The notes below the pieces were generated by a model. That model was not told where the DNA came from. It saw only the letters and a list, made by a program, of their open reading frames with translations, and made no database searches. A DNA stretch of 64,000 bases. Source: Paludibacter sp. (GTDB lineage: Bacteria > Bacteroidota > Bacteroidia > Bacteroidales > Paludibacteraceae). The stretch lies in assembly GCA_013426815.1 (NCBI GenBank), contig JACDZH010000001.1:14934-78933 (forward strand). The letters run 5' to 3'. Shown one piece after another: positions 2 through 63,268 of the stretch. The position numbers and the translations under genes were made by a program. Each line of letters begins with the position of its first letter. Positions within the stretch are counted from its first letter, which is position 1.

Positions 2-280
2 CTTTGGGAACGTGTTGTGCCAGTTTCGTGGTCTGGAGTTTTACAATACAATGGCACACATGGTGACGGTTTAATAGATGGTGTGGGTAATCCCAATGCT
101 GCCACTTGGCTATATACACCAACTCCATCCTATACTATGCTTAGCTTCCGTGGTGGTGGAATTGCATATGATAATCAATATTTGAGAGTTTCAGATAGAT
201 ATTGGGCATGTGCTTACTCATGTGATTATGGTCGTTCCAATTGGAATGGTGGACGTGGCGTTCGTACAGCACCATTATGA
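2..280 (+). CDS. FGE/SUMF1-fold secreted protein, paralogue 1 (C-terminal part; 5' end lies outside the window)
   Basis: The frame is open from base 2 (LWERVVPVSWSG...GTHGDG...FRGGG...RVSDR...NGGRGVRTAPL*) and matches the C-termini of the three downstream paralogues. Confidence 0.88.
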   Translation, partial: LWERVVPVSWSGVLQYNGTHGDGLIDGVGNPNAATWLYTPTPSYTMLSFRGGGIAYDNQYLRVSDRYWACAYSCDYGRSNWNGGRGVRTAPL

Positions 281-384
281 AATTTTTCAACCCCAAGATT
301 GAAATAGACAAAGAAATTGATTACAATAGCTCGATAGATATTGGGTATATGATCCAAAAAATAATTCGTATATATTATAAATAG
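277..384 (+). other. 35-aa ORF coupled to paralogue 1 by an ATGA overlap; possible four-helix-bundle gene remnant
   Basis: MKFFNPKIEIDKEIDYNSSIDIGYMIQKIIRIYYK* fills the spacer and ends 7 nt before the next ATG. The resemblance to four-helix-bundle C-termini is by eye only. Confidence 0.25.
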
Positions 385-391
385 TTATATT

Positions 392-2044
392 ATGAAAAGA
401 AATTTATTAAAAATCGCAGGTGGCTTACAAAGCGGTATTTTTGTAATCGCTACATTCCTTTGCTTACTGTTAAGCACCGGAGTTTATGCCAATAACATTG
501 CCGTAACCAATGTAAGCCTCACCAGCCCGGGTGTGGGATATACAATGGTTCAGTTTGACATAAGTTGGGAAAACTCCTTCAGGGTAAGTCATGGTCCTAG
601 CAACTGGGATGCTGCCTGGGTGTTTGTTAAATACCGCATCAAATCAAGTTATGGTGGTGATGGTACATGGAAACATGCCTGGCTGAACGAGAACGGACAT
701 ACCGCACCAGTAGGCAGTACCCTGGATGTAGGTTTGTTAGATCCTAAAACAGCCTTTAACAATACCACCAACCCCGCTATTGGTGCATTTTTGTATCGGA
801 GTGACGATGGTGTAGGCACTTTTACCAAAACTGGTGTGCAACTTAGATGGAACTATGCCCAAAACTATAAAACCGGTACAACTCCTATTGGAAGCACCGA
901 TGTAATGGATGTACAGGTATATGCCATCGAAATGATATATGTACCCCAAGCTGCTTTCTATTTGGGTTCTGGGGGTAATGAATTGGGAGCTTTTTTCACT
1001 TATCCTAACGTTACTACTCCGTATCAGGTTACCAGCGAAGCTGCCATAACAGTAGGAACTACCCCCGGTAATCTTTATTACGATAACAGTCTTAGTACAG
1101 GTCAAATTACCAGTCAAATTGGTGACAGAGGTACTCCTATCCCTGCTACTTACCCCAAAGGATATACAGCTTTTTATTGTATGAAATACGAAGTAAGCCA
1201 ACAGGGATATGTCGATTTTTTAAATACTTTAACCCGTATACAGCAAGGTGCTCGTGTAGGAACTAATATATCCGTTGGAACAACCACAGTAACCAATCGT
1301 TATGTTATAATTGAACAAAATTATCCACTTTATCGCCATAATATTCGTTGTGATGCCACCATAGATGCCAATAATCCCATTACCTTTTATTGCGATGCCA
1401 ATGGCAATGGTATAGGAGGAGAATTCAACGATGGAAAAGATGTAGCACTGAATTCAAGTCAAGTTGATTTATTCGCTTATCTAGATTGGAGTGGTTTACG
1501 TCCTATGACCGAAATGGAATTTGAAAAAGCCTGTAGAGGCAATCAAACTCCGGTACCTAACGAATTTGCATGGGGTTCAACCAGTATTGTTTCTGCAACA
1601 AATTATATCAATAGTGGAGCTAATAACGAAGTAGCCAGCAATATTGCAGTCGGAGCCAATTGTCATGGTGGTATAAATGCCTGGGCGGGACCTATCCGGG
1701 TTGGTTCATTTGCCAGTGCGGCATCATCGCGCCAGTCAGCAGGTGCCACCTATTATGGCATTACCGATATGAGTGGGAATATGATGGAAACAACAGTCAC
1801 ATCCGGTAACACTACCGGAAGAGCATTTACCGGTACACATGGAAATGGTATTTTAAGTGTTACCGGTAATGGTGATCAAACTACATGGACTACTTCAGTT
1901 AATGGCTGGAGAGGCGGTTGCGGCTATCTTTCTGGATATAATTCTGATATCTTATACGTTTCCTATAGAGGATGGTCAGTATATAATTATACTAGTAATC
2001 GAGACTATATATCCGGTGGTCGTGGAGTAAGGACAATGCCTTAA
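392..2044 (+). CDS. FGE/SUMF1-fold secreted protein, paralogue 2 (550 aa)
   Basis: Sec signal ending GVYA/NNI; SWENSFR..NWDAAWVFVKY N-domain; FYCMKYEVSQ..YVDFLN; YLDWSGLRPMTEMEFEKACRG; DMSGNMME; terminal GGRGVRTMP. Confidence 0.88.
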   Translation: MKRNLLKIAGGLQSGIFVIATFLCLLLSTGVYANNIAVTNVSLTSPGVGYTMVQFDISWENSFRVSHGPSNWDAAWVFVKYRIKSSYGGDGTWKHAWLNENGHTAPVGSTLDVGLLDPKTAFNNTTNPAIGAFLYRSDDGVGTFTKTGVQLRWNYAQNYKTGTTPIGSTDVMDVQVYAIEMIYVPQAAFYLGSGGNELGAFFTYPNVTTPYQVTSEAAITVGTTPGNLYYDNSLSTGQITSQIGDRGTPIPATYPKGYTAFYCMKYEVSQQGYVDFLNTLTRIQQGARVGTNISVGTTTVTNRYVIIEQNYPLYRHNIRCDATIDANNPITFYCDANGNGIGGEFNDGKDVALNSSQVDLFAYLDWSGLRPMTEMEFEKACRGNQTPVPNEFAWGSTSIVSATNYINSGANNEVASNIAVGANCHGGINAWAGPIRVGSFASAASSRQSAGATYYGITDMSGNMMETTVTSGNTTGRAFTGTHGNGILSVTGNGDQTTWTTSVNGWRGGCGYLSGYNSDILYVSYRGWSVYNYTSNRDYISGGRGVRTMP

Positions 2045-2072
2045 TAATGAATAATGAATAATGAATAATGTA
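2045..2072. repeat. Heptamer tandem repeat (TAATGAA)x4, last copy degenerate
   Basis: Read directly after the paralogue 2 stop codon. Confidence 0.85.
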
Positions 2073-2081
2073 TAATTAAGA

Positions 2082-2099
2082 TCCCGATAGCTATTGGGA
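2082..2099. repeat. REP-like palindrome TCCCGATAGCTATTGGGA (one mismatch)
   Basis: Near-perfect 18-bp palindrome; a perfect copy lies at 5601-5618. Confidence 0.75.
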
Positions 2100-2197
2100 G
2101 AATTAAGAATTCTTATTCGTGTTAATTTGTTAAATTAGTGGTTCAATTATAATAAAAAATGACAGAAACAGAAATAACGTTTAAAAAATAAATAAAT

Positions 2198-3829
2198 ATG
2201 AAAAAAAACCATTCAAAACCCGTACACAGCTTGCAAAGTATCGTCTTTGTGTTGGCTGTATTCGTATGCTTTTTATTTAGCACAGGTGCTTACGCCAATA
2301 ACATTGTTGTATCAGGTACAACAGTTTACGGGCACAATACAACCTTTAAAACCACAATGGTGAAGTTTAACTTACAATGGGAAAACTCATTTAGGGTGGA
2401 TCGGGGTCCTGCCAACTGGGATGCCGCATGGGTATTTGTAAAATACCGTGTTCCTACTAACTATGGCGGTGATGGTGTTTGGCGACGTGCCTCAATAACT
2501 AATACAGACTTTGTAGCGCCGGCAGGTAGCACTGTGGCATTGGGTTTGCTTTCACCGGGTATTGCCTACAATGCTACTACAAATCCGGTAATTGGCGGGT
2601 TTGTTCATCGTAGTGTAAATGGAGTTGGTACTATTAACGCCACTGGTGTAGAGTTAAAATGGAACTACGGAAACGATATAAAAACCGGTAGCACACTGGT
2701 TGGTGATAATGATGTAGTAGATATACAGGTGTACGCCATCGAAATGGTGTATATACCCACCGCTAGTTTTTATTTAGGAAGCGGAGGTACCGAAAATAAT
2801 GCTTTTTACAAAGCCCCCAATACTTCCGATCCGTATTTGGTTACAAGTGAAGCACAAATTACTGTAAATGCGAGTTCACCAAATCTTTACTATCCAACAG
2901 GTACTTATGGCGGCGATCAGGCTGGTCCCATCGTGGCTGCATACCCCAAAGGATACAATGGATTTTATTGTATGAAGTACGAAGTGAGTCAGCAAGGATA
3001 TGTCGATTTTCTGAATAGTTTAGTACGTGTACAACAGGCTAACCATGTAGCTACTTCGGTAGGTGTTGGAGCTACATCTGTTACCAATCGTTATGTGATG
3101 TATAATTCTGCTTCGCTTGGTTTTAGAAATGGAATACGCTGCGATGCTGCTATCAATGCCAATGACCCCATTACTTTTTATTGCGACTTAAATGGCAATG
3201 GTACCGGCAGCGAAGCAGCAGATGGTAAAGATATTGCCTGCAATTATTTAAATTGGGCTGATTTAGCTGCGTATCTCGATTGGAGTGGCTTACGCCCTAT
3301 GACTGAGTTGGAATATGAAAAAGCTTGTAGAGGCACTAAGTTGCCGATACCCAACGAATATGCCTGGGGCACGGTAAATCTTACCCAGAACACAGGAATA
3401 AGCAATGCTGGGCTTACCAACGAAGTAAGTGCTAATGGCGGTAACGCAACTTATGCTAATAATGCCGGTGTGCAAGGACCTATGCGTGTAGGTGCTTTGG
3501 CATTAAATCCTTCGTCGCGCGAGCGTTCGGGTGCCAGCTTTTATGGCATTATGGAATTAAGTGGTAATCTGTGGGAACGCGCAGTAACTATAGGTAATAC
3601 CGCCGGCAGGGGTTTTACAGGCACACATGGCGATTGTGTATTGGATGGAAACGGCTATGCAAATGCAGCTACTTGGCCCGTCATTGCAGGAGCGGGAGTC
3701 GGCATTCGCGGTGGAGATTGGTTTAATCTTGCTACTTATATGACGGTTTCTGATGCTTATTTTAGATCCTATACATATAGTCTCCGATACCAAAATTTTG
3801 GTGGTCGTGGTGTTCGGTTGGCTCCTTGA
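2198..3829 (+). CDS. FGE/SUMF1-fold secreted protein, paralogue 3 (543 aa)
   Basis: Same architecture: GAYA/NNI, NWDAAWVFVKY, MKYEVSQ, LRPMTELEYEKACRG, ELSGNLWER, RGGDW...VSD...GGRGVRLAP. Confidence 0.88.
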   Translation: MKKNHSKPVHSLQSIVFVLAVFVCFLFSTGAYANNIVVSGTTVYGHNTTFKTTMVKFNLQWENSFRVDRGPANWDAAWVFVKYRVPTNYGGDGVWRRASITNTDFVAPAGSTVALGLLSPGIAYNATTNPVIGGFVHRSVNGVGTINATGVELKWNYGNDIKTGSTLVGDNDVVDIQVYAIEMVYIPTASFYLGSGGTENNAFYKAPNTSDPYLVTSEAQITVNASSPNLYYPTGTYGGDQAGPIVAAYPKGYNGFYCMKYEVSQQGYVDFLNSLVRVQQANHVATSVGVGATSVTNRYVMYNSASLGFRNGIRCDAAINANDPITFYCDLNGNGTGSEAADGKDIACNYLNWADLAAYLDWSGLRPMTELEYEKACRGTKLPIPNEYAWGTVNLTQNTGISNAGLTNEVSANGGNATYANNAGVQGPMRVGALALNPSSRERSGASFYGIMELSGNLWERAVTIGNTAGRGFTGTHGDCVLDGNGYANAATWPVIAGAGVGIRGGDWFNLATYMTVSDAYFRSYTYSLRYQNFGGRGVRLAP

Positions 3830-3832
3830 TAG

Positions 3833-3953
3833 TAGAATGTAGAATGTAGAATGTAGAATGTAGTTTTTATATTCTCAATTCTCAATTCAAAAATAATTCT
3901 CAATTCTCAATCAAAAATAATTCTCAATTCAAAAATAATTCTCAATTCAAAAA
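3833..3953. repeat. Spacer repeat block: (TAGAATG)x4 followed by four ~18-bp AATTCTCAATTCAAAAAT units
   Basis: Heptamers at 3833-3860; 18-mers at about 3877-3894, 3902-3918, 3919-3936 and 3937-3953. Confidence 0.85.
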
Positions 3954-4023
3954 GGGATTTACAATTCCAAAATAATTCGATTAAATAGAAAAAAATGATA
4001 AATAATTTTTAATAATAAAAAAT

Positions 4024-5586
4024 ATGAAAAGAAACCATTCAAAACCCGCATTCAGCTTGCAAAGTAAAACCTTTGCGCTAGCTGCTTTATTTTGTATTTT
4101 ATTTGGCACCGGCGCTTATGCAAATAATATTGCTATCGCCAACGTAACTCCCATTGGGCAATCTACATCAGGTGCTGCCAATACGCACTATACTATGGTG
4201 CAGTTCGACATTTCGTGGGCTAATTCATTTCGTGTAAGTACAGGTCCTTCTAACTGGGATGCTGCATGGATGTTTGTAAAATATCGAGTTTCGGTAGCCA
4301 ATGGCGGTGATGGACTTTGGAGACATGCCACCCTTAATACTTCTGGTTTCACAGCACCTACCGGTAGCTCCATTACTGCAGCTACCGATGGTACAGGCGC
4401 ATTTATCTATATGTCGGCTGATGGTCGTGCCGATTTTAATAAATTAGGCGTACAACTACGCTGGAACTACGGACTAAATACCAAAGATGGAGTTACAGGT
4501 ATTGGAGATAACGATTTAGTGGATATTCAGGTTTTTGCTATCGAAATGCTTTGGGTACCACAGGGAGCTTTTGCAATTGGTACCGGTGGAACCGAGACCA
4601 GCGCATTTACTCTTACCACCATTAATACCGGTTCTGCTACTTTGACCCCTGCAGGCGTTGGAACACTTGGTGGACAAGCAGGTGGATATCCAACAGGAGC
4701 AACATTACCTACTTCTTCAACTTTTTCTAATGGATTCAATGGATTTTATTGTATGAAGTACGAAGTAAGTCAAAAGGGGTATGTCGATTTTTTGAATACA
4801 TTAACCTATACCCAACAAGCAGGTCGTGTTAGCATTGCACCAAGTTCTTCTGTTGGTACTTATATTAATGGTATAGATAATAAACGAAACAAAATTAAAA
4901 TTGGAACTCCCGGAACAGCTTCTACAGTTCCTGCCGTTTTTACTGCCGAATTTACCGATGTAGCTTGTAACTGGCTAAGTTGGGGCGATTTAGCTGCTTA
5001 TCTCGATTGGAGTGGCTTACGCCCAATGACAGAATTGGAATACGAAAAAGCATGTCGTGGTACTTTAGCACCTGTTGCAAATGAATATATTTGGGGTGGA
5101 ACAACCATTGCTACAGCCGAATATACTATTTCTAGCGGTGGTAGTCCTAGTGAAGTTATCAATGATAATTATAGCACAACCTTGGGAAATGCCGCTTATG
5201 CAACCACTGATTTAGTAACAGGTATTAACGGTCCTGTTCGTGTTGGTATTTTTGCCGGAACTTCTGGAAACAATGGTAGAAGAACTGCAGGTGCAACCTA
5301 CAATGTAATTATGGAAATGGGTGGTAATGTGTCAGAACGTGTTGTGGCATTAGATGCAACAGGTAAAGCTTTTACAGGAGTACATGGCGATGGAAGGCTT
5401 GACGCTAATGGTGATGCAGTAGTTACCAACTGGCCTGATGTAATGACTGCCGCTGGTATTGGTTTCCGTGGCGGTAACTGGCAAAGTTCTGCTGATTTTT
5501 TACGTATTTCTGACCGTGCTGATATAGCAACAGTTGATGCAACTCGTACTGCTTTAACCGGTGGACGTGGTGTTAGAATACCGTAG
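4024..5586 (+). CDS. FGE/SUMF1-fold secreted protein, paralogue 4 (520 aa)
   Basis: GAYA/NNI, NWDAAWMFVKY, MKYEVSQ, LRPMTELEYEKACRG, EMGGNVSER, FRGGNW...ISDR...GGRGVRIP. Confidence 0.88.
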   Translation: MKRNHSKPAFSLQSKTFALAALFCILFGTGAYANNIAIANVTPIGQSTSGAANTHYTMVQFDISWANSFRVSTGPSNWDAAWMFVKYRVSVANGGDGLWRHATLNTSGFTAPTGSSITAATDGTGAFIYMSADGRADFNKLGVQLRWNYGLNTKDGVTGIGDNDLVDIQVFAIEMLWVPQGAFAIGTGGTETSAFTLTTINTGSATLTPAGVGTLGGQAGGYPTGATLPTSSTFSNGFNGFYCMKYEVSQKGYVDFLNTLTYTQQAGRVSIAPSSSVGTYINGIDNKRNKIKIGTPGTASTVPAVFTAEFTDVACNWLSWGDLAAYLDWSGLRPMTELEYEKACRGTLAPVANEYIWGGTTIATAEYTISSGGSPSEVINDNYSTTLGNAAYATTDLVTGINGPVRVGIFAGTSGNNGRRTAGATYNVIMEMGGNVSERVVALDATGKAFTGVHGDGRLDANGDAVVTNWPDVMTAAGIGFRGGNWQSSADFLRISDRADIATVDATRTALTGGRGVRIP

Positions 5587-5600
5587 GTAATTGATAATTT

Positions 5601-5618
5601 TCCCGATAGCTATCGGGA
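5601..5618. repeat. REP-like perfect palindrome TCCCGATAGCTATCGGGA
   Basis: 18-bp palindrome 15 nt after the paralogue 4 stop, flanked by TTGATAA-type heptamers. Confidence 0.8.
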
Positions 5619-6139
5619 TGATAATTGATAATTGAAAAAATTATACTTTTCCAAGTTTTCTTTTGACTTTTTCTTTTAACTTTTCCAAAGTTTCATTTGA
5701 CTTTGGAAAAGTTAGAATAAAAAAAAATTAGAATTGTATAACAATTTTCAATTATCTACACTTTCAAAAGGGTGAATCGGATATTCCGCCCTTCTGGGGT
5801 GCTTCAATTACATAAAAATGCACTTTAGCAAAACCTAGATTATCGGAAGAATAATTTTATGTTATTGTAATAATTGCTTTTTTAAACTTCTCACAATTTA
5901 TATCTGGTTTTGTAATATCATAATCAGGAAATTGAGGGTAATTATGTGATATGCACGGATGATACAACACATTAAATATTAAATGGAATGTATTTGTTTA
6001 TCATCTTCAAATAAACCACTGCCGGTTAGCTGCCTCGAATAAATCGATTCAGATAATAATCAACATTTTATGAGATGGGCAGTTATTTTCATTTCAAAAT
6101 CAAGCTCTTGTAATAGGGAGTAAGCGGTTAAATGTTACC

Positions 6140-6244
6140 AACTTCCGTGGTAACTATTGGAACAATAATCCAACGAAAATGCAAGTTTCCGACCAAAAGA
6201 ACCCGGCGAACTGCCACTATAATTGTATGTTCAATTATGGTGGT
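6140..6244 (+). other. Non-genic copy of the FGE paralogue C-terminal segment; decayed DGR template-repeat-like sequence
   Basis: Translates as NFRGNYWNNNPTKMQVSDQKNPANCHYNCMFNYGG. The RG-x12-SD-x15-GG spacing equals that of paralogues 3 and 4. 9 of 35 codons are AAC/AAT. No upstream FGE body in this frame (TGA at 6071-6073). Confidence 0.5.
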
Positions 6245-6336
6245 GTGAGTCGTGTGCTCTATGTTCATTGCTTTCGTTTGTACACTGATCTTTTGACCAT
6301 TGACCAGCACCAATTGGCAATGCAAATTTAACAATT

Positions 6337-9300
6337 ATGAAAAGACTATCTTTATATTTTATCTTGTTGGCAGCCCTCCCCATAGGTTTGTTGGCTCAAA
6401 ACGAACGGTACTATGGAGGTGCAGGACGTGGAGATAAAGTGCTAAAGATAAATAATATAGTGTTAAGTGATATAGCTTCACCAGCCGACTATATTTATTT
6501 GGGAGGTATTGGTAGAGGTGATATTGCATTAACCGAAGTTGATAATTATCTGAAATCTGTTGATGGTGTTTATGTGGGTGGAAATGGACGTGGCAATAGC
6601 CTTGAGCTTTCAAGTATTAACTTTCTTAGCGAAGGTGAAGTAAGTGTATTGGACTTAATTTGTCAAGGGGGTTTTGGAAGCGGTGATATAGCCGTAACCG
6701 AAACAAGTTATGCTTTGTATGGTTTTCAAACTGTATACAAAGGAGGTATTGGACGTGGTGATAAGAATGCTGTAATAAATGATGCCACTGCCGATGGTGG
6801 GAATGTGTATGATTTAATTTATGTAGGTGGTATTGGTCGTGGTGATGTGAACATCGCAGATGCGGGTCTATCGTTGAATGGTGTAGATGCAGCTTATGCA
6901 GGTGGTAATGGTCGTGGCGACATATTAGATACGCAATACAGTTTAGCAATTAATGATCTTGGAATTTTCGAATCGGTTTATTTAGGTGGTATTGGGCGAG
7001 GTGATATAGTGCGTACGGAAAACAATTTCTTGTTGGGCGGTTATGGTGCGCGTTTTGTAGGCGGTAATGGTCGTGGTGATATCTCCATTGTAAGTTCAGA
7101 ATTAAGCATAGGAAGTAGATCTATTTACGATATTTTATATTTTGGAGGAGTAGGACGTGGAGATATTTCAAAAACAGAGAATGCCTATTCACTTGGTGGT
7201 ATAGAAGTGGTGTACGTGGGTGGCAACGGACGTGGTGATAATGTTAATACCAAATACATCAATTCCATCAACGAAGGTAATCTTACTGACATCATCTACT
7301 CGGGTGGTGGGGGACGTGGTGATATATCGGTAATTGAAACCAATTATGCATTGTCCGGTGTTGGTGCTGTTTACTTTGGCGGCAATGGTCGCGGTGATAT
7401 CTTATTAGGATTATACGATTCAACCGTTAGTGGAAATAACGATGGAATATTTATGGGCGGTGTTGGTCGTGGAGATATATCCTTAACAGAAAGCAATTTC
7501 TCATTGGGAGGTCTCGACGGACTGTTCGTGGGTGGAAATGGTCGTGGAGATAAACTTCAGGGCTTATATTTTATTTCAATAAGCGGCTTTAATATATATG
7601 CCGGCGGTGTGGGTCGTGGTGATATTTCTCGTACCGAAACCAATTATCTATTAAGTGGTTTAGGAGGTCGTTTTGCCGGTGGTATTGGTCGTGGAGATAT
7701 TATAATTAAAATACCTAATACTGGCATTGGTGGTGGTTCTATTATTGATATGCTCTACAGTGGTGGAATTGGACGTGGAGATGTTTCAATCAGAGAAACC
7801 GAATATTATTTATCCGGATTAGATTTTGTTTATTATGGCGGTAATGGACGTGGTGATATTATTGAAGCAAAATACACTAACTTTATCAATGAAGTTGATA
7901 TTACCGATGTCATCTACTCGGGTGGAATAGGCCGTGGTGATAATTCTAATATAGAAACCAGTTATCCATTATCGGGAGTAGGCGGCGTTTACTTTGGTGG
8001 AATAGGGCGTGGAGATAATTTATTGAGTATTTATGATGTTTCTACCGGTGGTGGAATTGATATTATTTACACTGGTGGTATAGGTCGTGGAGATGTATCT
8101 CAGACAGAAAATAATTATACATTGGGTGGTTTCGATGGACTATTTGTGGGCGGTAATGGACGTGGAGATAGGCTCGAAACTTTGTACAGCGCTCAGGTCG
8201 CAGTTATTAATTTATATGCCGGTGGCTTGGGTCGTGGCGATATATCGCATACCGAAACAAATAATTTATTAAGTGGTTTTGGTGGTCGTTACTTTGGAGG
8301 TATTGGTCGCGGTGATATTAGCATAACTTCGTTTGGCAGTTCAAATCTCGAATTATTGTATGCCGGTGGTGTGGGTCGCGGTGATATGGGTACAGCAGAT
8401 TCTAATTTATTACTTGCCGGATATGATGCCGTTTATGTGGGAGGTAATGGTCGTGGTGATAAATTGGATGTTTTAGCTGAACTTCCACTTGGCAATAGTA
8501 CAATTTACACCGGTGGTGTTGGACGTGGTGATATTTCGGTTACCGAAACTAGTTTCTCATTGTCAGGAGTTGGCGGAGTTTACTTTGGTGGCATTGGTCG
8601 TGGTGATATTTTATTTAGCATTTTCGATAAATTGGTTACTGGTGATGATATAATTTCAAACATTTATTACGGTGGTATTGGTCGTGGTGATTTTGGAATT
8701 GTTGAAACTAGTTCATCACTGTCAGGACCGGATGCACTTTATGTGGGTGGCAATGGACGTGGTGATATGTCTCAATTATTGGCAACTATTGGTACAGTTA
8801 ATATTTATACTGGCGGTGTAGGTCGCGGTGATTTTAACCGTACAGAAATTGGCTTTTTACTAAATGGTGTTGGTGCCCGTTATTTAGGTGGTGTCGGTCG
8901 TGGTGATATCAGTGTAAAGGTTATACAAGTAATAGATCCAGATTTGATTTACACAGGTGGTATAGGTCGTGGTGATGTTAGCTTAGTTAATATCAATTTG
9001 TTATTGGGCGGTCCAGATGGACTTTTTGTGGGAGGCAATGGTCGAGGTGATAACAGGCATCAAGCCAATTCTATTCCAATAAATGAAATTCCACTCTTTG
9101 ATATTATCTACAATGGTGGAGATGGTCGTGGTGATTATAACTATTTAAGTCATGATTCCTATCTTGACGGTACTTATCGTGGTGGAGATCGTTACCGAGG
9201 CGGTTCTGGTCGTGGAGATATCATCTCTAATACAACTCATTCCTTGCTCGATGGTACTACCAACTTTAATGCTATCATTTATGGAGGTGGTATTGGTCGG

Positions 9301-12021
9301 GGTGATATTTCAATACTTATTGATAGTTATCCATTAGCAGGTTCTGATAATCTTTATAATGGTGGTGATGGACGTGGTGACATTGAAAATCAATTGGACA
9401 ATGTATATATCAATGAAACTGGTGTACCCATAGATTTATTATATGTTGGAGGTATGGGACGTGGTGATGCATCACACACTGAATTTGATTTTACATTAAG
9501 AGGTTTGGGTGTTTACTTTGGTGGCGATGGACGGGGTGATGTATTATATGGTATTGAAGATAAATTAACGAACGGAGAAGATATTTACTCAGTAGTTTAT
9601 GTGGGTGGTTTAGGACGTGGTGATATAGCCACTGGAGGAAACGATTATCCACTTAGTGGTACTGATGGAGTTTATGTAGGGGGTTCCGGTCGTGGTGATA
9701 AGTTGGATTATGTAAAAACTCTAGGTATTAATGCGGCTATTTGGTTGGGAACACTTAATAACGATTGGGCGAATGCAGGTAACTGGGGTGGAAACATATT
9801 GCCAGCTGAGGATGGTGATATAATATTTGGTTACAATCCTATAAATGATTTATACATGGATGCCGATCATTTGCTACGTAGAATTACCAATGCCAGTGCT
9901 ACACGTCGATTGGTAACCAATGGTCATATATTGAAAGTATCGAATGACTTTGTATTCACTAACGGAGCTCAAATAGATGCATCCGCAATTGGTTCTGCCA
10001 TTGAGATGGATGGTATTGTTACCCAAATAATCCCTGCCGGTTTGTTTGTTTCAAATAACGTCTATAACTTAATCATAAATAATGCGCCGAATGTAAGGTT
10101 GAGCGGTACAATCAATATTATGAATGAATTGACAACTCTTGCAGGTAAGTTAGATGTAACTACTAATTTAGCGACAGTTAATTTTGTAGGTACTTCTGCT
10201 CAAACCATTGGAGATGTGTTCTTGAATAACAGGGTTTACAACTTAACTATAGATAATCCTGCAGGTGTAACCATCAATAATTCTGCCAATACTACCTTGG
10301 TTGGAACCTTGACATTGAAAAATACGTTAACAGTATCAGGTGCAGGACGTTTAGATGCAGATTCGATTACATTAAATCCAGCAGTAATATATTCGGGTGT
10401 GACTGCTCAATCCATTGATGATGATCTTTATCTTCTCAACAGAGCGCATAATCTAATCATCAACAATACAGCAGGTGTTACCCTCAATACTGACTTTGCA
10501 GTAGATAATGTATTGACTATCAATCCAGGTAAAAAAATGACAATACCTACCGAAAAGTATATGTATGTTGATAAAACATTCACAAACAATGCAGGAATAT
10601 CCGGTTTGTTAATCAAAGCCAGTGTAGATGGGTCTGTTGCAAATGGTTCGTTGGTATTCAATAATGTTAGAAATAATCCGGTGTCAGCCACTGTAGAAAT
10701 GTACGATAAAGCATCTGGTCCGGCTGGAAATACCTTGGCAAGTAAGTTTAAATGGCAATACTTTGGTATACCGTTCAGAAGCTTAACACATGGCGGTATA
10801 TTCAATAGAGGGGATGGAAATGGTTCGTATGTACGTCGTTGGAATCATAGTGATTCGAAATGGTATTTACAGAAAGGTGATTCAATACTGACATCGTTCA
10901 CAGGTTATGAAATTGCACAACCAAATCCTAAAGTAATTACCTTTACAGGCGTGCTGGAAAATGGTAACTTTACTAAAACATTGGATTATAACGGTGTTGG
11001 AACAAATAAAGGACAGTATTTATTTGCTAATCCTTATACAGCAGCCATTGATATTACTAAACTTGAATTTACTGATGGAGTTGAAAAGTCGGTTTATTTA
11101 TTCAATACTGGCTCTACGGCTGACTGGACTGCCAATGGTGGTGTGCTTACACCAGGCAATAATCCTGGACAATATGTAGTGGCACCAAAACAAACTGCAG
11201 GTACTGGAGGAATTCCATCTCAAATACCATCAATGCAAGGCTTCTTGGTGAACGATATCGAGGATTTGGACCGTGATAGTGTTCATATATTTAGTATACC
11301 TTATTCAGCTGTGGTAACTAAAAACACAGCACCACTAAGAACTAGATCAAATGATAATGTAGCCAAATCTGATAAAGTATATAGTATTATTGATGTGAAG
11401 GGTAGTCGTTTTGGTGACCGTATGTGGTTGTTCACCGATTCTACTTGCAACCATGACTTTAACAATGGATGGGACGGACGGAAAGTATTCGGTACTGTTC
11501 TTACACCTCAGCTATATGCAGTTGAATCGGATGGTGATTATCAAATTAATGCTGTGAATGATATTAACAACACAGATTTGGCATTCCAGGCTGGTGAAGA
11601 CACAAAATATAAGCTCACATTCTCACACACCAATACTGAAACGCATTATGCAGCTATCTATTTGGTTGATATGTTAGAAAATGTTACTACTGATATTACA
11701 TTATCTGGTTCGGAATATGCATTCGAAGCTGCTTCAACTGAAAAGCCGGTGAAACGATTTAAAATTATTACCGTTTCGGCAACTGCAACTAGTACTAGTC
11801 TGACTAAGGTATTCAGTGCTGACAAAACAATTTTTGTACAGAATTTCAGTCATGTAATTGGTGATTTGTATCTATACGATATTGCAGGAAGATTTATTCA
11901 AAAATCACCATTTGGAGGAAGTGGATTAACAGCAATACCAGTGAATTTACCTGTAGGACCGTATGTAGTAAAAGCTGTTACAAAATTAGATGTAACAACT
12001 TCAAGTTTGATAATTAAATAA
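6337..12021 (+). CDS. Giant T9SS-secreted protein with 43 GGxGRGD-type repeats (1894 aa); putative adhesin or scaffold
   Basis: Signal peptide; repeat region 6409-9699; WLGTLNNDWANAGNW module; repeated VYNLxIxN beta-helix-like units; WQYFGIPF domain; T9SS-type tail (LYLYDIAGR...LPVGPYVVK...LIIK). Confidence 0.9.
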   Translation: MKRLSLYFILLAALPIGLLAQNERYYGGAGRGDKVLKINNIVLSDIASPADYIYLGGIGRGDIALTEVDNYLKSVDGVYVGGNGRGNSLELSSINFLSEGEVSVLDLICQGGFGSGDIAVTETSYALYGFQTVYKGGIGRGDKNAVINDATADGGNVYDLIYVGGIGRGDVNIADAGLSLNGVDAAYAGGNGRGDILDTQYSLAINDLGIFESVYLGGIGRGDIVRTENNFLLGGYGARFVGGNGRGDISIVSSELSIGSRSIYDILYFGGVGRGDISKTENAYSLGGIEVVYVGGNGRGDNVNTKYINSINEGNLTDIIYSGGGGRGDISVIETNYALSGVGAVYFGGNGRGDILLGLYDSTVSGNNDGIFMGGVGRGDISLTESNFSLGGLDGLFVGGNGRGDKLQGLYFISISGFNIYAGGVGRGDISRTETNYLLSGLGGRFAGGIGRGDIIIKIPNTGIGGGSIIDMLYSGGIGRGDVSIRETEYYLSGLDFVYYGGNGRGDIIEAKYTNFINEVDITDVIYSGGIGRGDNSNIETSYPLSGVGGVYFGGIGRGDNLLSIYDVSTGGGIDIIYTGGIGRGDVSQTENNYTLGGFDGLFVGGNGRGDRLETLYSAQVAVINLYAGGLGRGDISHTETNNLLSGFGGRYFGGIGRGDISITSFGSSNLELLYAGGVGRGDMGTADSNLLLAGYDAVYVGGNGRGDKLDVLAELPLGNSTIYTGGVGRGDISVTETSFSLSGVGGVYFGGIGRGDILFSIFDKLVTGDDIISNIYYGGIGRGDFGIVETSSSLSGPDALYVGGNGRGDMSQLLATIGTVNIYTGGVGRGDFNRTEIGFLLNGVGARYLGGVGRGDISVKVIQVIDPDLIYTGGIGRGDVSLVNINLLLGGPDGLFVGGNGRGDNRHQANSIPINEIPLFDIIYNGGDGRGDYNYLSHDSYLDGTYRGGDRYRGGSGRGDIISNTTHSLLDGTTNFNAIIYGGGIGRGDISILIDSYPLAGSDNLYNGGDGRGDIENQLDNVYINETGVPIDLLYVGGMGRGDASHTEFDFTLRGLGVYFGGDGRGDVLYGIEDKLTNGEDIYSVVYVGGLGRGDIATGGNDYPLSGTDGVYVGGSGRGDKLDYVKTLGINAAIWLGTLNNDWANAGNWGGNILPAEDGDIIFGYNPINDLYMDADHLLRRITNASATRRLVTNGHILKVSNDFVFTNGAQIDASAIGSAIEMDGIVTQIIPAGLFVSNNVYNLIINNAPNVRLSGTINIMNELTTLAGKLDVTTNLATVNFVGTSAQTIGDVFLNNRVYNLTIDNPAGVTINNSANTTLVGTLTLKNTLTVSGAGRLDADSITLNPAVIYSGVTAQSIDDDLYLLNRAHNLIINNTAGVTLNTDFAVDNVLTINPGKKMTIPTEKYMYVDKTFTNNAGISGLLIKASVDGSVANGSLVFNNVRNNPVSATVEMYDKASGPAGNTLASKFKWQYFGIPFRSLTHGGIFNRGDGNGSYVRRWNHSDSKWYLQKGDSILTSFTGYEIAQPNPKVITFTGVLENGNFTKTLDYNGVGTNKGQYLFANPYTAAIDITKLEFTDGVEKSVYLFNTGSTADWTANGGVLTPGNNPGQYVVAPKQTAGTGGIPSQIPSMQGFLVNDIEDLDRDSVHIFSIPYSAVVTKNTAPLRTRSNDNVAKSDKVYSIIDVKGSRFGDRMWLFTDSTCNHDFNNGWDGRKVFGTVLTPQLYAVESDGDYQINAVNDINNTDLAFQAGEDTKYKLTFSHTNTETHYAAIYLVDMLENVTTDITLSGSEYAFEAASTEKPVKRFKIITVSATATSTSLTKVFSADKTIFVQNFSHVIGDLYLYDIAGRFIQKSPFGGSGLTAIPVNLPVGPYVVKAVTKLDVTTSSLIIK
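6409..9699 (+). repeat. Intragenic repeat array: 41 GRGD plus 2 variants (GRGN, GSGD), units of 22-30 aa
   Basis: Counted from the translation; mostly 25-aa units alternate with variable 22-30-aa units. Confidence 0.92.
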
Positions 12022-12025
12022 TAAA

Positions 12026-12802
12026 ATGGGTAACATAAGTAAAATAACAATTGGACTATTTGTCTTTGTATTACTAGGGGTTTCATTAATCCTAGTGCTA
12101 CGTTATTTTCCTATGAGTACACCTGAAAACTATACCGTAAGACCTCATCTTAATTTTAAACAAGGAGCTGTTTTTAATCAAAATGTGAAATATATTTCAA
12201 TTAATAATGCCGATAAAAAACTAAAGAAAGGATTGCAATTTAACTTAAAAGTTGAAAATGAACCCATTTCACCTTCCAATAGCAAACAATTACAAGGTGT
12301 GAATTTTGGCACTAGAATTATGAATACTTCTAAGTCAAATACACAGTTTGTCGACGAAAATCCTTTTGAAACCATGCATAATCATGAAATTGGTTTATTG
12401 AGAACAAGAAGTAGTGTTGGAAGGAATGTTGTGTTATCACAATATATGGTCGGTGAAACAAGCCAACACGCCAGTTATAAGATAGAAAATAACAGGGTTA
12501 ATTCTATGCCTACAAGCTCAATGGGTACATATATTTCAAGTAATAATGCTACTAGCAATAATTCCAAAAATCAACCACAAAGTAACTATTCGTTCTCTAC
12601 TGATTTGAAATCACTTCAAACATTGCTTTTATCGAAACAAGATAATCCATCGTTTGGTCCCGATCCTGGTGGTCCAGGTGATACGGGAGATGATATGGGC
12701 GAACCTGTAGCTCCTGTTCCAGATGGTTTCTGGTTCTTAATGTTGTTGGGAGCAATGTATGCCGGACGGAAATTCTATAAATATTTTCAACTTATCAAGT
12801 GA
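12026..12802 (+). CDS. Hypothetical membrane/surface protein with a C-terminal PEP/PID-CTERM-like sorting signal
   Basis: N-terminal hydrophobic helix, S/N-rich middle, then GPDPGGPG linker, PVAPVPDG, a hydrophobic stretch and basic RKFYK; starts 4 nt after the repeat-protein stop. Confidence 0.65.
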   Translation: MGNISKITIGLFVFVLLGVSLILVLRYFPMSTPENYTVRPHLNFKQGAVFNQNVKYISINNADKKLKKGLQFNLKVENEPISPSNSKQLQGVNFGTRIMNTSKSNTQFVDENPFETMHNHEIGLLRTRSSVGRNVVLSQYMVGETSQHASYKIENNRVNSMPTSSMGTYISSNNATSNNSKNQPQSNYSFSTDLKSLQTLLLSKQDNPSFGPDPGGPGDTGDDMGEPVAPVPDGFWFLMLLGAMYAGRKFYKYFQLIK

Positions 12803-16625: not shown

Positions 16626-19600
16626 ATGTCAAAACTTCTCATAAACGAATACTATCAAAATCTCGATAGAACTTTGCAATATGGTAAAAGTAGTAACGAA
16701 CAGAGTATCAGAAATCATTTCTGGCATTTACTGAACGATTATGCCCGTAAACTGAATTATGAAGTGATACCAGAAGTATCTGTTATGGGCACTAGAGGTA
16801 AAAAAGTGTACCCCGATGGAACAGTGAAAAATCTTTGGGGACTTGATATTGGTTTATGGGAAAGTAAGGACGAAAAGGATGACATTGAAGCCGAAATTGA
16901 TGCCAAAATTGTAAAAGGGTATCCACTTACAAACATACTTTTTGAAGACAGCAACCTTGCTGTTCTATTTCAGCGTGGCATAGAGGTTATGCGTGTGAAA
17001 GTGCGCGATGTCGATAGTTTCGACAAAATTCTGACCATGTTTATTGGTTTTAAAAGCGAATCTGTTTATCAGTTTGAAGAGGCGATAGAAAAATTTAAAG
17101 CAGATATTCCTATAATTGTAGAAACGCTGCGAACCAAAATTATGGAGGATAGGGCTAATAATGCCCAATTTATTGCAGAACAGAACACGTTTTTTGAATT
17201 GTGTAAAGTGGAGATAAACCCCAGCATCACATTGGATGATATTCGCGAAATGATGATACAACACATTCTGACAAGCGATATTTTCAATAAAATTTTCGAT
17301 GACCCCGATTTTCATCATCATAATACCATTGCTTCGGAATTAGAAAAGCTCACGGCTACACTTTTTACATACCCCGAACGACGTAACCTGCTCAACAGCA
17401 TTGAACATTATTACCAAGCCATCAATTCCACTGCTGCCGGAATTACCGACCACCACGAGAAACAAAAGTTCCTAAAAGTATTATACCAAAACTTTTACAA
17501 GGTATATAATCCAAAAGCTGCCGACCGATTGGGAGTTATTTATACACCAAACGAAATTGTATCATTTATGGTAAAAAGCACCAACTACCTGCTTCACAAG
17601 TATTTTGGGCGTACTTTGGCTGACCATAACGTGGAAATTCTCGACCCAGCCACTGGTACCGGAACGTTTATTTGCGAAATAATTGAAAACGCCATTCCCA
17701 AACAAAACCTCGATTACAAATTCAAAAACGAACTACATGCCAACGAAGTAGCCATATTGCCCTATTATATTGCTAATCTGAATATTGAGTACACTTTTAA
17801 GCAAAAAATGCAATATTACGCCGAGTTCCCTAACCTATGTTTTGTAGATACCATCGACAATACTGGAGGATTGGTATTTGAAGGAAAGCAACACGATTTG
17901 TTTGGATTGAGTAGTGAAAATTCAGAACGCATTAAACGTCAAAACCGCAAGAAAATATCCGTTATCATTGGCAATCCGCCTTATAACGCCAACCAACTGA
18001 ACGAAAACGAGAACAACAAAAACCGCGAATATCCTTTTATCGATAAACGCATTAAAGATACTTTCATAAAGCACAGCACGGCTCAAAAAACAAAAGTCTA
18101 TGATATGTATGCCCGATTTTACCGCTGGGCAATGGACAGGATAGAGCAAAACGGCGTATTGGCAATGATTACCAACCGAAGTTTTATTGACAGCCGTACC
18201 TTCGATGGTTTCCGAAAATGTATTCAGTCAGAATTTTCTCATTGTTATATCATTGATACACTAAGCGATGTGCGTGCAAATCCTAAAATTGCCGGAACCA
18301 CACACAATGTTTTTGGCATTCAAACTGGAGTTGCCATCATGTTTTTGATAAAAAAAGATAAACAAGCCGGAAATTGTATGATTGAATATGTAAGTATGGA
18401 CGATTACTGGCGAAAAGAAGAAAAACTTGACTGGCTGAAAAACAATCAGATAGAAAATATTCACTTCCAAACCATACACCCCGACAAAAATAACAATTGG
18501 ATTAATTTGAGTGAAGAAAATGATTGGGAAAATTTGATTCCAGTGGCTGATAAAGATGTAAAACTGGGTAGAAGTAAAAAAGCTATTTTTGAATTGTTTT
18601 TTACTGGTGTACCTACAAATAGGGATGGATGGGTTTACGACTTAAATAAAAATAACCTTATAAATAAAATGAATTTTTTCTCAGAGACATTTAATAAAAA
18701 TTTGGGGAAAAATGAATTTGATAATCGATTGAAATGGAGTCGAGATTTAAAAAACGAACTTCTCAGAGGAAATAAGTCTTCATTTAATTCAAAATATATT
18801 GTTCAAGCAGTTTATCGTCCTTTTATTAAACAGTTTCAATATACAGAAAAAATTCTTAATGATGTTTTAACACAAAATCATTATGACGTTTTTGGAAGTA
18901 ATTTAAACGAGGTGAATAAAATAATTTGTATTCCTGGAGTAGGGATTGATAGACCATATCATTGTATATCAGTAAAATATTTACCACATTTACAAATTAC
19001 ACCTAATGGTCAATGTTTACCAGCAAAACGCTATAATAAAGCAAATCAATATGTTGACAATATAACCGACTGGGGTTTAGAGCAATTTTTTACTCATTAC
19101 GATGACGAAACCATCACGAAAGAAGATATTTTTCATTACACCTACGCTGTTTTGCATAATCCGGTTTACCGCGAAAAATACAAATTGAACCTTAAACGAG
19201 AGTTTCCACGTTTGCCTTTTTATAACGATTTCAAAAAATGGGCTGCATGGGGCAAATCTTTGATGGAACTTCATATTAATTACGAAACCGCCAAACCATA
19301 CAATTTGGAAGTGCTGACATTTGAAACTAAAACCGAAGCAAAAGCAGAAGTGAAACGCCAAAAGGAAATGTTTATAGTGGTAAGCGAACCTGATGAATTG
19401 TTCATAAGAATTCCAAAAATTAAACCACGTTTAAAAGCCATTAAAAATATTGGGATTATCGAAATTGATGATTTGACATTTCTAAAAGGAGTTCCATCAA
19501 TTGCTTGGGAATATAAATTAGGTAACCGTTCAGCCATCGAATGGATTTTGGATCAATATAAAGAAAAGAAACCAACCGATCCCACTATCGCCGATCAGTT

Positions 19601-19724
19601 TAATACCTACCGTTTTGCCGATTACAAAGACAAGGTTATTGAATTGATTCAGCGTGTATGTACTGTCAGTGTGGAAACCATGAAAATTACCGAAGAAATG
19701 AAATTAGAGTTCAAGATTCAATAA
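16626..19724 (+). CDS. Single-chain restriction-modification enzyme: N6-adenine methyltransferase with an N-terminal PD-(D/E)xK-like region and a type ISP-like C-terminal specificity domain; no helicase
   Basis: YPDG...WESKD (nuclease-like), GVIYTP, LDPATGTGTF (motif I), IIGNPPY (motif IV), YRPF, EFPRLPF, YKLGNRSAIEWILDQY; no DEAD/helicase motifs in 1032 aa. Confidence 0.85.
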   Translation: MSKLLINEYYQNLDRTLQYGKSSNEQSIRNHFWHLLNDYARKLNYEVIPEVSVMGTRGKKVYPDGTVKNLWGLDIGLWESKDEKDDIEAEIDAKIVKGYPLTNILFEDSNLAVLFQRGIEVMRVKVRDVDSFDKILTMFIGFKSESVYQFEEAIEKFKADIPIIVETLRTKIMEDRANNAQFIAEQNTFFELCKVEINPSITLDDIREMMIQHILTSDIFNKIFDDPDFHHHNTIASELEKLTATLFTYPERRNLLNSIEHYYQAINSTAAGITDHHEKQKFLKVLYQNFYKVYNPKAADRLGVIYTPNEIVSFMVKSTNYLLHKYFGRTLADHNVEILDPATGTGTFICEIIENAIPKQNLDYKFKNELHANEVAILPYYIANLNIEYTFKQKMQYYAEFPNLCFVDTIDNTGGLVFEGKQHDLFGLSSENSERIKRQNRKKISVIIGNPPYNANQLNENENNKNREYPFIDKRIKDTFIKHSTAQKTKVYDMYARFYRWAMDRIEQNGVLAMITNRSFIDSRTFDGFRKCIQSEFSHCYIIDTLSDVRANPKIAGTTHNVFGIQTGVAIMFLIKKDKQAGNCMIEYVSMDDYWRKEEKLDWLKNNQIENIHFQTIHPDKNNNWINLSEENDWENLIPVADKDVKLGRSKKAIFELFFTGVPTNRDGWVYDLNKNNLINKMNFFSETFNKNLGKNEFDNRLKWSRDLKNELLRGNKSSFNSKYIVQAVYRPFIKQFQYTEKILNDVLTQNHYDVFGSNLNEVNKIICIPGVGIDRPYHCISVKYLPHLQITPNGQCLPAKRYNKANQYVDNITDWGLEQFFTHYDDETITKEDIFHYTYAVLHNPVYREKYKLNLKREFPRLPFYNDFKKWAAWGKSLMELHINYETAKPYNLEVLTFETKTEAKAEVKRQKEMFIVVSEPDELFIRIPKIKPRLKAIKNIGIIEIDDLTFLKGVPSIAWEYKLGNRSAIEWILDQYKEKKPTDPTIADQFNTYRFADYKDKVIELIQRVCTVSVETMKITEEMKLEFKIQ

Positions 19725-22690: not shown

Positions 22691-23881
22691 ATGATAAAAA
22701 AAATGCTTGTATTAGGAACAGTTATTTTGAGCAGCTTTTCTGCAATAGCTCAGGATTCTACCGCAGTTGACAGTTTCAAATTTACAGTACTGAAGCAAAA
22801 TAAAATTTCAACGGTTAAAAATCAAGCGAGTTCAGGTACATGTTGGAGTTTTTCTACTTTGGGATTTTTAGAGGCAGAATTGTTGCGCATGGGTAAACCG
22901 GAAGTCGATTTGTCCGAAATGTTTGTCGTGCATCATTCGTATACCGACAAAGCCGATAAATACGTTCGCATGAATGGCACCATCAATTTTGCATGTGGTG
23001 GTTCATTTTCGGATGTTATTTATGTGCTTAAGAATTACGGAATTGTGCCCGAATCTGCCATGAGCGGCCTCAATTATGGTGAAGACTAGCATCGTCACGG
23101 CGAATTGGATGCACTTATCGCTGCATATACCAAAGTAATAGTTTCAAATCCAAACAAAAAACTTTCTACTGCATGGAAAGCCGGTTTTGAAGGGGTTCTA
23201 GATGCTTATTTAGGCTCTTGTCCTAAAGAATTTACCATGGATGGAAAGAAATATTCACCAACCACTTATGAACAATCTTTGGGATTAAATCTCGACGATT
23301 ATGTTTCATTGACATCATTTACGCATCATCCTTTTTATATGAAATTTATTATCGAAATACCCGATAACTGGCGTTGGGAAGAATCTTATAATTTGCCACT
23401 CGATGAGTTTAAAAGTATAATAGATAATGCGATAGATAAAGGATATTGTATAGCTTGGGGTTCGGATGTGAGCGAAAAAGGGTTTTCAAAAAAAGGCATT
23501 GCCGTAAATCCCGAAATCAAAGTTGAAAACATGCAAGGAACAAATCAGGCACGTTGGTTAGGCATTTCCGATAAAGACAGGGAAGAAAAAATATACAAGA
23601 ATTTGAAACCTCAACCCGAAGTGAAAGTTACACAGGAAATTCGTCAGGCGGCATTCGATAACTATCAAACTACCGACGACCACGGAATGGTAATATTTGG
23701 TACTGCAAAAGATCAAAACGGAACAAAGTATTATTTGGTAAAAAACTCTTGGGGAACCGATTCAAAATACAAAGGAATTTGGTACGCCAGTGAATCATTC
23801 GTTTTACACAAAACCATCAATATTCTTGTACATAAAAATGCAATTCCAAAAGAAATTCAAAAGAAATTAGGATACAAATAA
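22691..23881 (+). pseudogene. C1 family cysteine aminopeptidase (aminopeptidase C/bleomycin-hydrolase-like) split by a single in-frame TAG at 23087-23089
   Basis: The two ORFs are in the same frame and read NYGED*HRHGELDAL. Catalytic elements are intact: QASSGTCWSF, DDHGM, KNSWG. Confidence 0.8.
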
Positions 23882-53245: not shown

Positions 53246-53300
53246 TTGAGGTATTTATTTGTGAAACAACAAATTAAATGACAAATTCATTAAAGATAAA

Positions 53301-53355
53301 TTGTAAGTCATAATTATTACGATTTGTGGACAGATAAAAATGTGTTATAAAACAT
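53301..53355. promoter_or_regulatory. 55-bp conserved upstream motif, copy 2 (divergent region between paralogue B and the carrageenase-like gene)
   Basis: 47/55 identical to 48249-48303. Confidence 0.6.
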
Positions 53356-53432
53356 TTTTTTTGTTGTCAACAGATTCAATGTCAATAGACTTATAGAGTT
53401 GTAACTTTCAAATTTTATTAAACAGAAAACAA

Positions 53433-56480: not shown

Positions 56481-56553
56481 ATTATTTGCTACTTATTCAA
56501 TTTCTAAAGTAGAGTTTATAGAAGTTAAGTAATTAATATTGTTAATGTGACAA

Positions 56554-58673: not shown

Positions 58674-58674
58674 A

Positions 58675-60840: not shown

Positions 60841-60855
60841 TGTAGAATTTTTTAC

Positions 60856-63222: not shown

Positions 63223-63268
63223 AATATTTTATTTTTAGTTTTTACACCTTAAAAATTTAACAACTAAA

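Follow-up and report, generated by a model that had tools for sequence, protein, structure and literature searches.

A glycine-rich N-terminal tag and a conserved FGE-fold protein form a two-gene module, with the tag present in 43 copies in a predicted type IX secretion cargo of Paludibacter

True formylglycine-generating enzyme (FGE) holds a short linear peptide motif in a groove, the CxPxR motif of sulfatases being the one that it recognises and modifies. To our knowledge, type IX secretion system (T9SS) cargo is thought to be recognised via its C-terminal domain (CTD) only. A cysteine-less version of the FGE fold is part of this machinery: PorK, GldK and GldJ rely on it in the T9SS ring and in the gliding track, where it serves as 'docking hub' (PMC12421860; PMC12635249). 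Here, a stretch of 64,000 nucleotides from a Paludibacter sp. assembly (GCA_013426815.1, contig JACDZH010000001.1, positions 14,934 to 78,933; the window, within which all coordinates are given) was analysed around a gene encoding a protein of 1894 aa (6337-12021, + strand, by open reading frame (ORF) translation) that is largely built of RGD-bearing units and that follows several genes for FGE-like proteins. Its array is an extreme amplification of a ~20-aa Gly-rich tag, [YF]xGGxG[RK]G[DE] plus a short strand, which it carries in 43 copies versus at most ~20 in any other tag protein. The tag is shown to belong to a two-gene module, in which a conserved Sec-exported FGE-fold protein and a tag-bearing T9SS or other secreted cargo are linked both ways. 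Literature searches returned no description of the repeat or of the FGE-like/tag gene pair; the N-terminal tag and its partner family are thus the new elements, T9SS cargo and FGE-fold accessory proteins being known.

The linkage was approached from both of its ends. A forward scan for RGD-repeat proteins, with one genome per species, gave 24 loci, or 25 together with that of the relative P0002. Nearly all of them are titled as Bacteroidota, comprising metagenome-assembled genomes (MAGs) of Flavobacteriales, Chitinophagaceae and Bacteroidales together with Wandonia haliotis, the exceptions being a MAG labelled Pseudomonadota (L019) and another labelled just 'bacterium' (L021). One to four FGE-like genes lie immediately upstream and on the same strand in 23 of these 25 loci, and the two remaining contigs have, respectively, no upstream DNA and 532 nt only. 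The reverse test was blind to the motif: metagenome contigs were searched with the profile of the FGE-like family alone, 80 loci were kept, and a strict motif, [YFW]xG[GS]xx[RKDN]G[DEYFH], was then sought on the same strand within 900 nt downstream. It was present in 42 of the 63 loci having at least 300 nt of downstream sequence, at a median distance of 134 nt from the FGE-like stop codon, just behind the signal peptide of the next gene and usually as a single copy. The 21 motif-negative loci include several with near-variants (GGNGGGS, GGVGCGD, GGDGDGC, GGSGGGY) or with repeats deeper in the protein, as well as some with frameshifts or truncated contigs. Of the 986 ORFs in the long loci, 38 carry the motif, and with ~3 exceptions these lie directly downstream of an FGE-like gene; no third conserved gene family was found in the locus neighbourhoods. 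The window itself matches this pairing, with four FGE-like genes at 2-5586 and the tag directly after the signal peptide of the array protein. In the cultured carrier, Wandonia haliotis JCM 16083, the products are annotated as 'hypothetical / sulfatase-modifying factor enzyme-like domain-containing' and 'T9SS type A sorting domain-containing'. As a separate observation, the only other partly conserved neighbour is a protein of ~970-990 aa (signal peptide, ...AQNVGINETG...), encoded downstream of the tag protein in eight Flavobacteriales-type loci (e.g., L001:11497-14457).

The upstream genes of the window, all on the + strand, encode FGE-like paralogues 1 (392-2044, 550 aa, PF03781 E 1.3e-8 and family alignment), 2 (2198-3829, 543 aa, E 2.2e-10) and 3 (4024-5586, 520 aa, E 6.2e-9), preceded by the 3' end of a fourth one that is cut by the window edge (2-280), ends ...GGRGVRTAPL* and clusters with the same family. 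The PF03781 scores are above the gathering score, and the layout consists of a signal peptide, a mature start NNI, a beta-rich N-terminal domain and a divergent FGE-sulfatase fold that takes up the C-terminal two-thirds. Paralogues within the window are ~47-48% identical to each other, and paralogue 3 keeps 37-40% full-length identity to both genes upstream of P0002, a protein whose source is a MAG unrelated to the window. Alignments of 15 and 27 sequences, drawn from different orders, exhibit ~70 invariant positions, the family being far more conserved than the adjacent tag proteins. All members have a signal of the signal peptidase I (SPase I) type, the invariant mature start NNI (ANNI) and the end GGRGVRxxP, while both a lipobox Cys and a T9SS CTD are absent from all those aligned. 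In total, the family profile matches at least 581 metagenomic stretches.

When this profile was compared with solved structures, FGEs were matched best (E 4.5e-7), followed by CalU17 and EgtB; PorK chains were not among the matches to the Protein Data Bank (PDB), and NCBIfam, including the GldJ and GldK models, gave no match at E≤0.1. All three of these closest solved relatives are enzymes. A rival explanation is an enzyme-substrate relationship, in which the FGE-like protein would be a periplasmic peptide-modifying enzyme, [YF]xGGxGxGx its recognition or modification motif, and the array a heavily modified surface polymer. Maturases and their substrates typically show this pattern, a conserved 'machine' next to hypervariable proteins that carry a short motif, both partners traverse the periplasm before T9SS export, and the family has an invariant H454, a nearly invariant H101 and many invariant Asp and Glu residues. 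On the contrary, no Cys is conserved in either alignment, and the loop after RGGS[WY], which in true FGE is the site of the Cu-binding Cys pair, reads RGGNWQSSADFLR, without CxxxxC. The DinB-type iron domain of EgtB is likewise missing, no modifiable side chain is invariant across the flavours of the tag (R/K/D/N at one position and D/E/Y/F/H at the other), and the T9SS precedents of the FGE fold are structural (PMC12421860). Hence, the family appears from its sequences as an FGE fold devoid of the catalytic cysteines and non-enzymatic-looking, and modification of the tag by it is considered improbable.

Some further features of FGE-like genes deserve mention on their own. At four loci (L022:5847-9743, L072:736-3447, L079:7989-12422 and L090:7866-10877) the FGE-like gene is contained in an ORF of 903-1477 aa, either a fusion with extra domains or a read-through into an adjacent gene, and the next gene is still tag-first. 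A reading of the tandem genes as lectins varied by a diversity-generating retroelement was considered and rejected, as the paralogues differ throughout (at the identities given above); no reverse transcriptase was found among the annotated window neighbours. The window also encodes a second, much closer FGE-sulfatase protein of 295 aa (49518-50408, - strand, PF03781 E 9e-44), two genes away from a beta-lactamase-fold gene, which ends ...RGGSWNEYARYCR, lacks the CxxxxC pair and may not be a catalytic FGE.

Regarding the tag, its repeat matches no named family, as the preliminary description of this DNA had supposed: the whole protein matched no repeat family of Pfam or NCBIfam at E≤1, and a double-unit profile gave a chance match alone (E 0.36) among PDB sequences. 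A word-indexed homology search with the whole protein retrieved P0002 only, other candidates being swamped by Gly-rich words, and the same kind of search with the unit alignment gave no matches. Relatives were obtained by an exhaustive search of 1.84 billion representative proteins with a unit profile, which yielded 101 matches at E≤1e-3 that span very different architectures. One type, exemplified by P0002, combines an N-terminal domain, units of ~24 aa of the form 'PP..ASI[FY]xGGxGRGD' and a C-terminal domain ending EQLP; another (P0141, P0148) has the layout of the window protein; P0147, of 3372 aa and with a type B CTD, keeps RGD invariant even though its GGxG decays; and short proteins are numerous. 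The tripeptide after GGxG is mostly RGD (254 occurrences), followed by KGD (37) and RGE (27), lower-scoring matches having NGF, DG[YFS] or YGD in its place. In many members the mature chain begins with Q[YF]xGGxGRGD right behind the signal peptide.

The proteins encoded downstream of FGE-like genes share nothing but the tag, the parts attached to it including a BNR/Ycf48-like propeller, DUF285 repeats, stalk modules like that of the window protein and EQLP-type C-termini. Within this same gene context the tag comes in the flavours GGxGRGD/KGD/RGE, GGxGNGD, GGNGDG[YFH], GGN-A-DG[FH] and GGSYDGY, and of two positions in the motif, one or the other always holds an acidic residue; RGD is thus just one of the forms that a wider [YF]xGGxGxGx motif takes. 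In the smallest carriers (137-142 aa) a signal peptide and one tag are followed by ~25 linker residues and a PF18962 domain (E 1e-11, above threshold). A mature part of ~38 aa, as some of these proteins have, cannot be a solenoid, and the tag is thus a self-contained short element. As judged from these sequences, the motif is more than a structural repeat: T9SS cargo proteins with no other relationship commonly carry just one copy of it, at the N-terminus. In addition, a C-terminal domain of ~230 aa ending EQ[LIV]P takes the place of the T9SS CTD in many tag proteins from MAGs of Flavobacteriales (carriers in L001, L003, L004, L006-L010, L015, L020, L098 and L084); it contains two D[VI]NxDGxxxYxGxxND..IL repeats, dockerin or EF-hand-like, and has no Pfam match.

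In the window protein, the amplified tag starts at the very N-terminus of the mature chain. Residues 1-20 read as a Sec signal peptide, MKRLSLYFILLAALPIGLLA|Q (6337-6396, + strand), with predicted cleavage at A20|Q21, so that the mature protein would be Gln-first, and unit 1 follows directly: QNERYYGGAGRGD. Its first tag covers residues 21-33, and the same AQ|[YF]xGG arrangement recurs in dozens of relatives. The array extends over residues 21-1121 (6397-9699, + strand). Splitting after G[RS]G[DN] produced 43 [YF]xGGxG(R)G(D) units, which end in GRGD in 41 cases, in GRGN in unit 2 and in GSGD in unit 3. The whole ORF has 42 exact RGD motifs, whereas ~1.0 would be expected from its composition; the 41 of the array (residues 31-1121) are those that had been counted before. 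The two-unit alternation and the periodicity of GGNG that had been described with them also hold: even units are 25 aa long in 19 of 21 cases (24 and 28 aa in the other two) and alternate with odd units of 22-30 aa, and GGNG occurs in units 2, 6, 8, 10, 12 and 14 (period 2) and then in units 18, 22, 26, 30 and 34 (period 4). Identity between units is maximal at a lag of four double units, from which an eight-unit super-repeat follows. When double units are aligned, both GGxG cores are invariant. In the first RGD this also applies to G and D, in the second to R and G, the remaining R (first RGD) and D (second RGD) being retained in at least 90% of the rows.

The duplications behind this array are, judging by their divergence, old, without recent amplification. 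Mean identity between units is just 40-58%, Tandem Repeats Finder (TRF) detected no DNA-level tandem repeat in the array, and 42 of the 43 motif-coding 21-mers are distinct, synonymous codons being mixed. Together, these three features show that the motif is maintained by purifying selection. Two observations on the RGD surroundings stand beside these. The 42nd RGD (NRGDGNG, residue 1491, 10807-10815) lies outside the array, within the stalk module, and is not conserved in the consensus of 47 stalk homologues. A match to the O-glycosylation sequon of Bacteroidetes, D-(S/T)-(A/I/L/V/M/T), was looked for by eye only and rejected, as the residues after RGD (D-I-S, D-V-S) do not fit it.

An AlphaFold (AF2) model of units 11-26, computed from a four-row self-alignment, is all-beta, with a predicted local distance difference test (pLDDT) score of 65 and a predicted template modelling (pTM) score of 0.60. 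All 16 modelled units show a strand ([YF]xGG / xG), a three-residue non-strand RGD and then another strand, in such a way that the structural turn proposed early on for RGD is found, in this model of moderate confidence, between two strands in 16 of 16 cases. Foldseek gave the array model no significant neighbour in the PDB (best E 0.37), and its weak neighbours are nearly all beta-solenoids, namely tailspikes, HMW1, curli CsgA, autotransporter passengers and RTX. An elongated beta-solenoid-like fibre with RGD as turn is a reasonable, if unproven, interpretation of the model. From here, a purely structural explanation can be formulated, by which the units would be coils or hairpins of a Gly/Asp-rich beta-solenoid, possibly Ca2+-stabilised like RTX, that extends an adhesin head, the FGE-like genes being mere neighbours. 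The strand-GG-strand, RGD-turn and strand succession, the solenoid neighbours, the acidic residue that is never lost from the motif, and the position of the array, which occupies the place of adhesin-like heads in homologues, all speak in its favour. Nevertheless, such an explanation leaves the two-way gene linkage unaccounted for, single N-terminal tags on unrelated domains cannot be solenoids, no structural match is found at E<0.3, and the RTX model of Pfam (PF00353, HemolysinCabind) does not match the window protein at E≤1. We consider it unlikely.

The same model bears on the RGD itself. As the canonical integrin motif (with KGD in relatives), it had raised the idea of a host-cell adhesin, whose 41 RGD copies would serve as integrin ligands for polyvalent attachment to animal cells; the modelled RGD sits in turns and could be exposed, and Wandonia haliotis was isolated from abalone. 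However, the window DNA comes from a pond metagenome, the great majority of the relatives are MAGs of environmental origin (sludge, lake, sediment and others), and the longer conserved motif around RGD has Gly positions that are as invariant as the tripeptide. The distribution between host and free-living sources, which the preliminary description had proposed to look at, thus runs counter to a host-cell role. In place of RGD, sister proteins that share the gene context have GGNGDG[YFH], GGSYDGY, GGxGNGD, KGD or RGE, a kind of substitution that the preliminary description itself had regarded as contrary to an integrin function. Because of the environmental origin and of these non-RGD flavours in the same context, the integrin reading is considered refuted, with hardly any probability left to it; a bacterial protein does not have to be a host adhesin for having 41 'RGD' motifs.

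Downstream of the array, residues 1122-1818 (9700-11790, + strand) form a conserved, all-beta multidomain stalk module, supported by homologues and AF2, that opens with a W..G....W....NW junction. For the C-terminal 750 aa, 209 homologues were found in Paludibacter and other Bacteroidota. Many of them are titled 'T9SS type A sorting domain-containing protein', and their N-terminal heads vary widely (Ice_binding, Ig-like, NHL, YDG and others); the RGD array is absent from all 121 stalk homologues retrieved. Modelling of residues 1122-1894 from a homologue alignment gave a pLDDT of 85.4 and a pTM of 0.81, and the stalk model showed weak whole-chain Foldseek matches to S-layer, Bap and SdrD-type adhesins. 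The end of the protein (~residues 1819-1894; 11791-12018, + strand) is assigned, by Foldseek and homologues, to a divergent T9SS type A C-terminal sorting domain. Its own profile score is low, TIGR04183 reaching 13.5 bits on the window protein, under the cut-off of 23, and Pfam, PF18962 included, giving no match to it. Nonetheless, the last ~75 aa of the model superpose on the CTDs of RemA, RemZ and NucA in the SprA translocon (8gl6_D, 8gl8_D, 8glk_D) with template modelling (TM) scores of 0.72-0.75 and a Foldseek probability of 1.0, and on that of RgpB with 0.58, and of 47 homologues aligned to the C-terminal module, 18 match PF18962 in the region of the alignment. The T9SS label that the protein had received at first sight is borne out in this manner, the structural model supporting its assignment as T9SS type A cargo. 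PF18962 is also matched above threshold by at least five other window proteins (29237-31621, 42079-44721, 50837-53245, 53433-56480 and 60856-63222), and no T9SS core genes occur within the 64-kb window.

Considering (i) the gene linkage, (ii) the tag as the sole element shared by the downstream proteins, and (iii) the retention of RGD across very different architectures, even with GGxG decayed as in P0147, we propose that the tag would be the cis element of the two-gene module, with the dedicated FGE-like protein as its partner. Recognition of the tag by the FGE-fold protein is regarded as the most likely mechanism, with chances that we would place near the midpoint between acceptance and rejection; it is favoured because of the analogy with the peptide groove of FGE and of the docking role that the FGE fold has in T9SS. 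By this mechanism, the FGE-fold protein would dock on the tag, either in the periplasm or at the surface, and the 43-unit array would be a polyvalent docking fibre on the surface, of elongated beta structure and with RGD as a tight turn. In its fullest form, the proposal is that of a hitherto unrecognised N-terminal docking-tag system of Bacteroidota, where a non-catalytic FGE-fold 'receptor' binds [YF]xGGxG[RK]G[DE] and is carried to, or anchored on, the surface by the T9SS cargo, the proteins of 137-142 aa acting as pure adaptors and the 43-tag protein as a fibre comparable to scaffoldin, on which FGE-fold subunits of the four paralogues would be displayed by the dozen; taken with all these details, it is rather doubtful.

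Several observations weigh against docking. The partner, having neither T9SS CTD nor lipobox, is predicted from its sequence to be periplasmic, while the tag ends outside. About one third of the FGE-like loci lack the strict motif downstream, and the number of FGE-like copies is only weakly and non-significantly related to that of tags (rho 0.25, p 0.066). A neighbour-joining tree of the FGE-like proteins does group them by the flavour of the neighbouring tag, with one GGSYDGY clade, one GGN[AG]DG[FHY] clade and several RGD clades, a pattern explained equally well by plain co-inheritance of the pair; and no clean specificity-determining column, nor any convincing charge switch, was found between partners of RGD-type and DG[YFH]-type tags. 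The array model, at a pLDDT of 65, is of moderate confidence and has no significant structural neighbour, and the binding of the tag by the FGE-like protein is itself something that we infer. Lastly, the array gene is separated by 750 nt (5587-6336) from the FGE-like gene that precedes it, versus mostly less than ~120 nt in other loci; this spacer has inverted repeats at ~5600-5620 and 5668-5716 and no coding potential in the + frames, suggesting either separate transcription of the window genes, which would count among the adverse points, or a lost small gene.

Beyond the array gene, a 258-aa ORF starts 4 nt after its stop codon (12026-12802, + strand, from the ORF list) and is probably co-transcribed with it. 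Its product begins with a membrane anchor, continues with a middle of low complexity that is rich in N and S, and closes with PVPDGFWFLMLLGAMYAGRKF, a hydrophobic, basic tail; the C-terminal 'PVPDGFWFLMLLGAMYAGRKFYKYF' resembles a sorting signal of motif, transmembrane segment and basic tail. No Pfam or NCBIfam family was found for it, nor any tblastn match in 25 related loci, and its membership of the module is doubtful because it is not conserved in other loci. Other genes of the window include a type ISP restriction-modification enzyme (16626-19724, + strand; Type_ISP_C E 7e-81 plus coupler, Eco57I and N6_Mtase domains), two adjacent ORFs (22691-23089 and 23105-23881, + strand) that correspond to the N-terminal and C-terminal parts of a papain-like C1 peptidase and may be a frameshifted or split gene, and a fragment of 130 aa of a DDE transposase (PF01609, 56809-57204, - strand). 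Large glycan-degradation clusters (26927-48228 on the - strand, and 50837-63994) encode melibiase, GH9, GH2, sulfatase, pectate-lyase-like, GH97 and lambda-carrageenase-like proteins, and the at least five window proteins with clear T9SS CTDs belong to them.

If the proposal were true, an N-terminal element with its own partner gene would add an undescribed layer to the handling of T9SS cargo, be it docking, piloting, hitch-hiking or modification, and would be a further instance of a theme now emerging, in which the FGE fold is reused by Bacteroidota for docking without an enzymatic role. The pairing occurs in Flavobacteriales, Chitinophagaceae and Bacteroidales, and the module is small and directly testable, since it comprises two genes, its smallest tagged cargo has 137-142 aa and at least one carrier, Wandonia haliotis JCM 16083, is cultured.

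With regard to known systems, the array resembles the nonapeptide beta-roll of RTX proteins (GGxGxDxUx) in having a Gly/Asp-rich turn followed by a hydrophobic position (GGxGRGD-I/V-x here), in forming tandem arrays in secreted proteins, and in placing the motif in turns of a predicted beta structure. It differs in its unit, of 22-30 aa with one motif rather than 9 aa, in its Asp, shifted by one to position 7 of GGxGRGD, in the export route, T9SS here and the type I secretion system (T1SS) for RTX, and in that the tag motif also functions as a single copy. Likeness to scaffoldins (cohesin-dockerin), with many tandem docking sites on a surface-anchored fibre, is conceptual only, the docking element here being a tag of 20 aa and not a folded cohesin domain. 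The same applies to pertactin and FHA, where RGD is shown on a beta-helical secreted protein, whereas no host context for an RGD-integrin function exists here; no sequence or fold relationship to these three was found, no comparison having been aimed at them. Among homologues proper, modular T9SS type A cargo such as that of Paludibacter shares the stalk and CTD at 36-50% identity over ~500-750 aa, the tag array being absent from the 121 homologues retrieved.

The closest parallels are found on the side of the partner. FGE and its CxPxR motif are comparable in that FGE is the closest solved relative and in that one conserved FGE-fold protein faces many short-motif proteins; nevertheless, the Cys pair is missing from the FGE-like family, the tag is Gly-rich without a Cys or Ser target, and the partners are T9SS cargo, not sulfatases. 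Compared with PorK, GldK and GldJ, the FGE-like proteins are non-lipoproteins with an SPase I-type signal and the NNI start, and have another N-terminal domain, of ~170 aa; their genes, often 2-4 in tandem, lie next to single cargo genes instead of in the gldKLMN/porKLMN operon. With these proteins they have in common their occurrence in Bacteroidota, the link to T9SS and an FGE fold without the catalytic cysteines.

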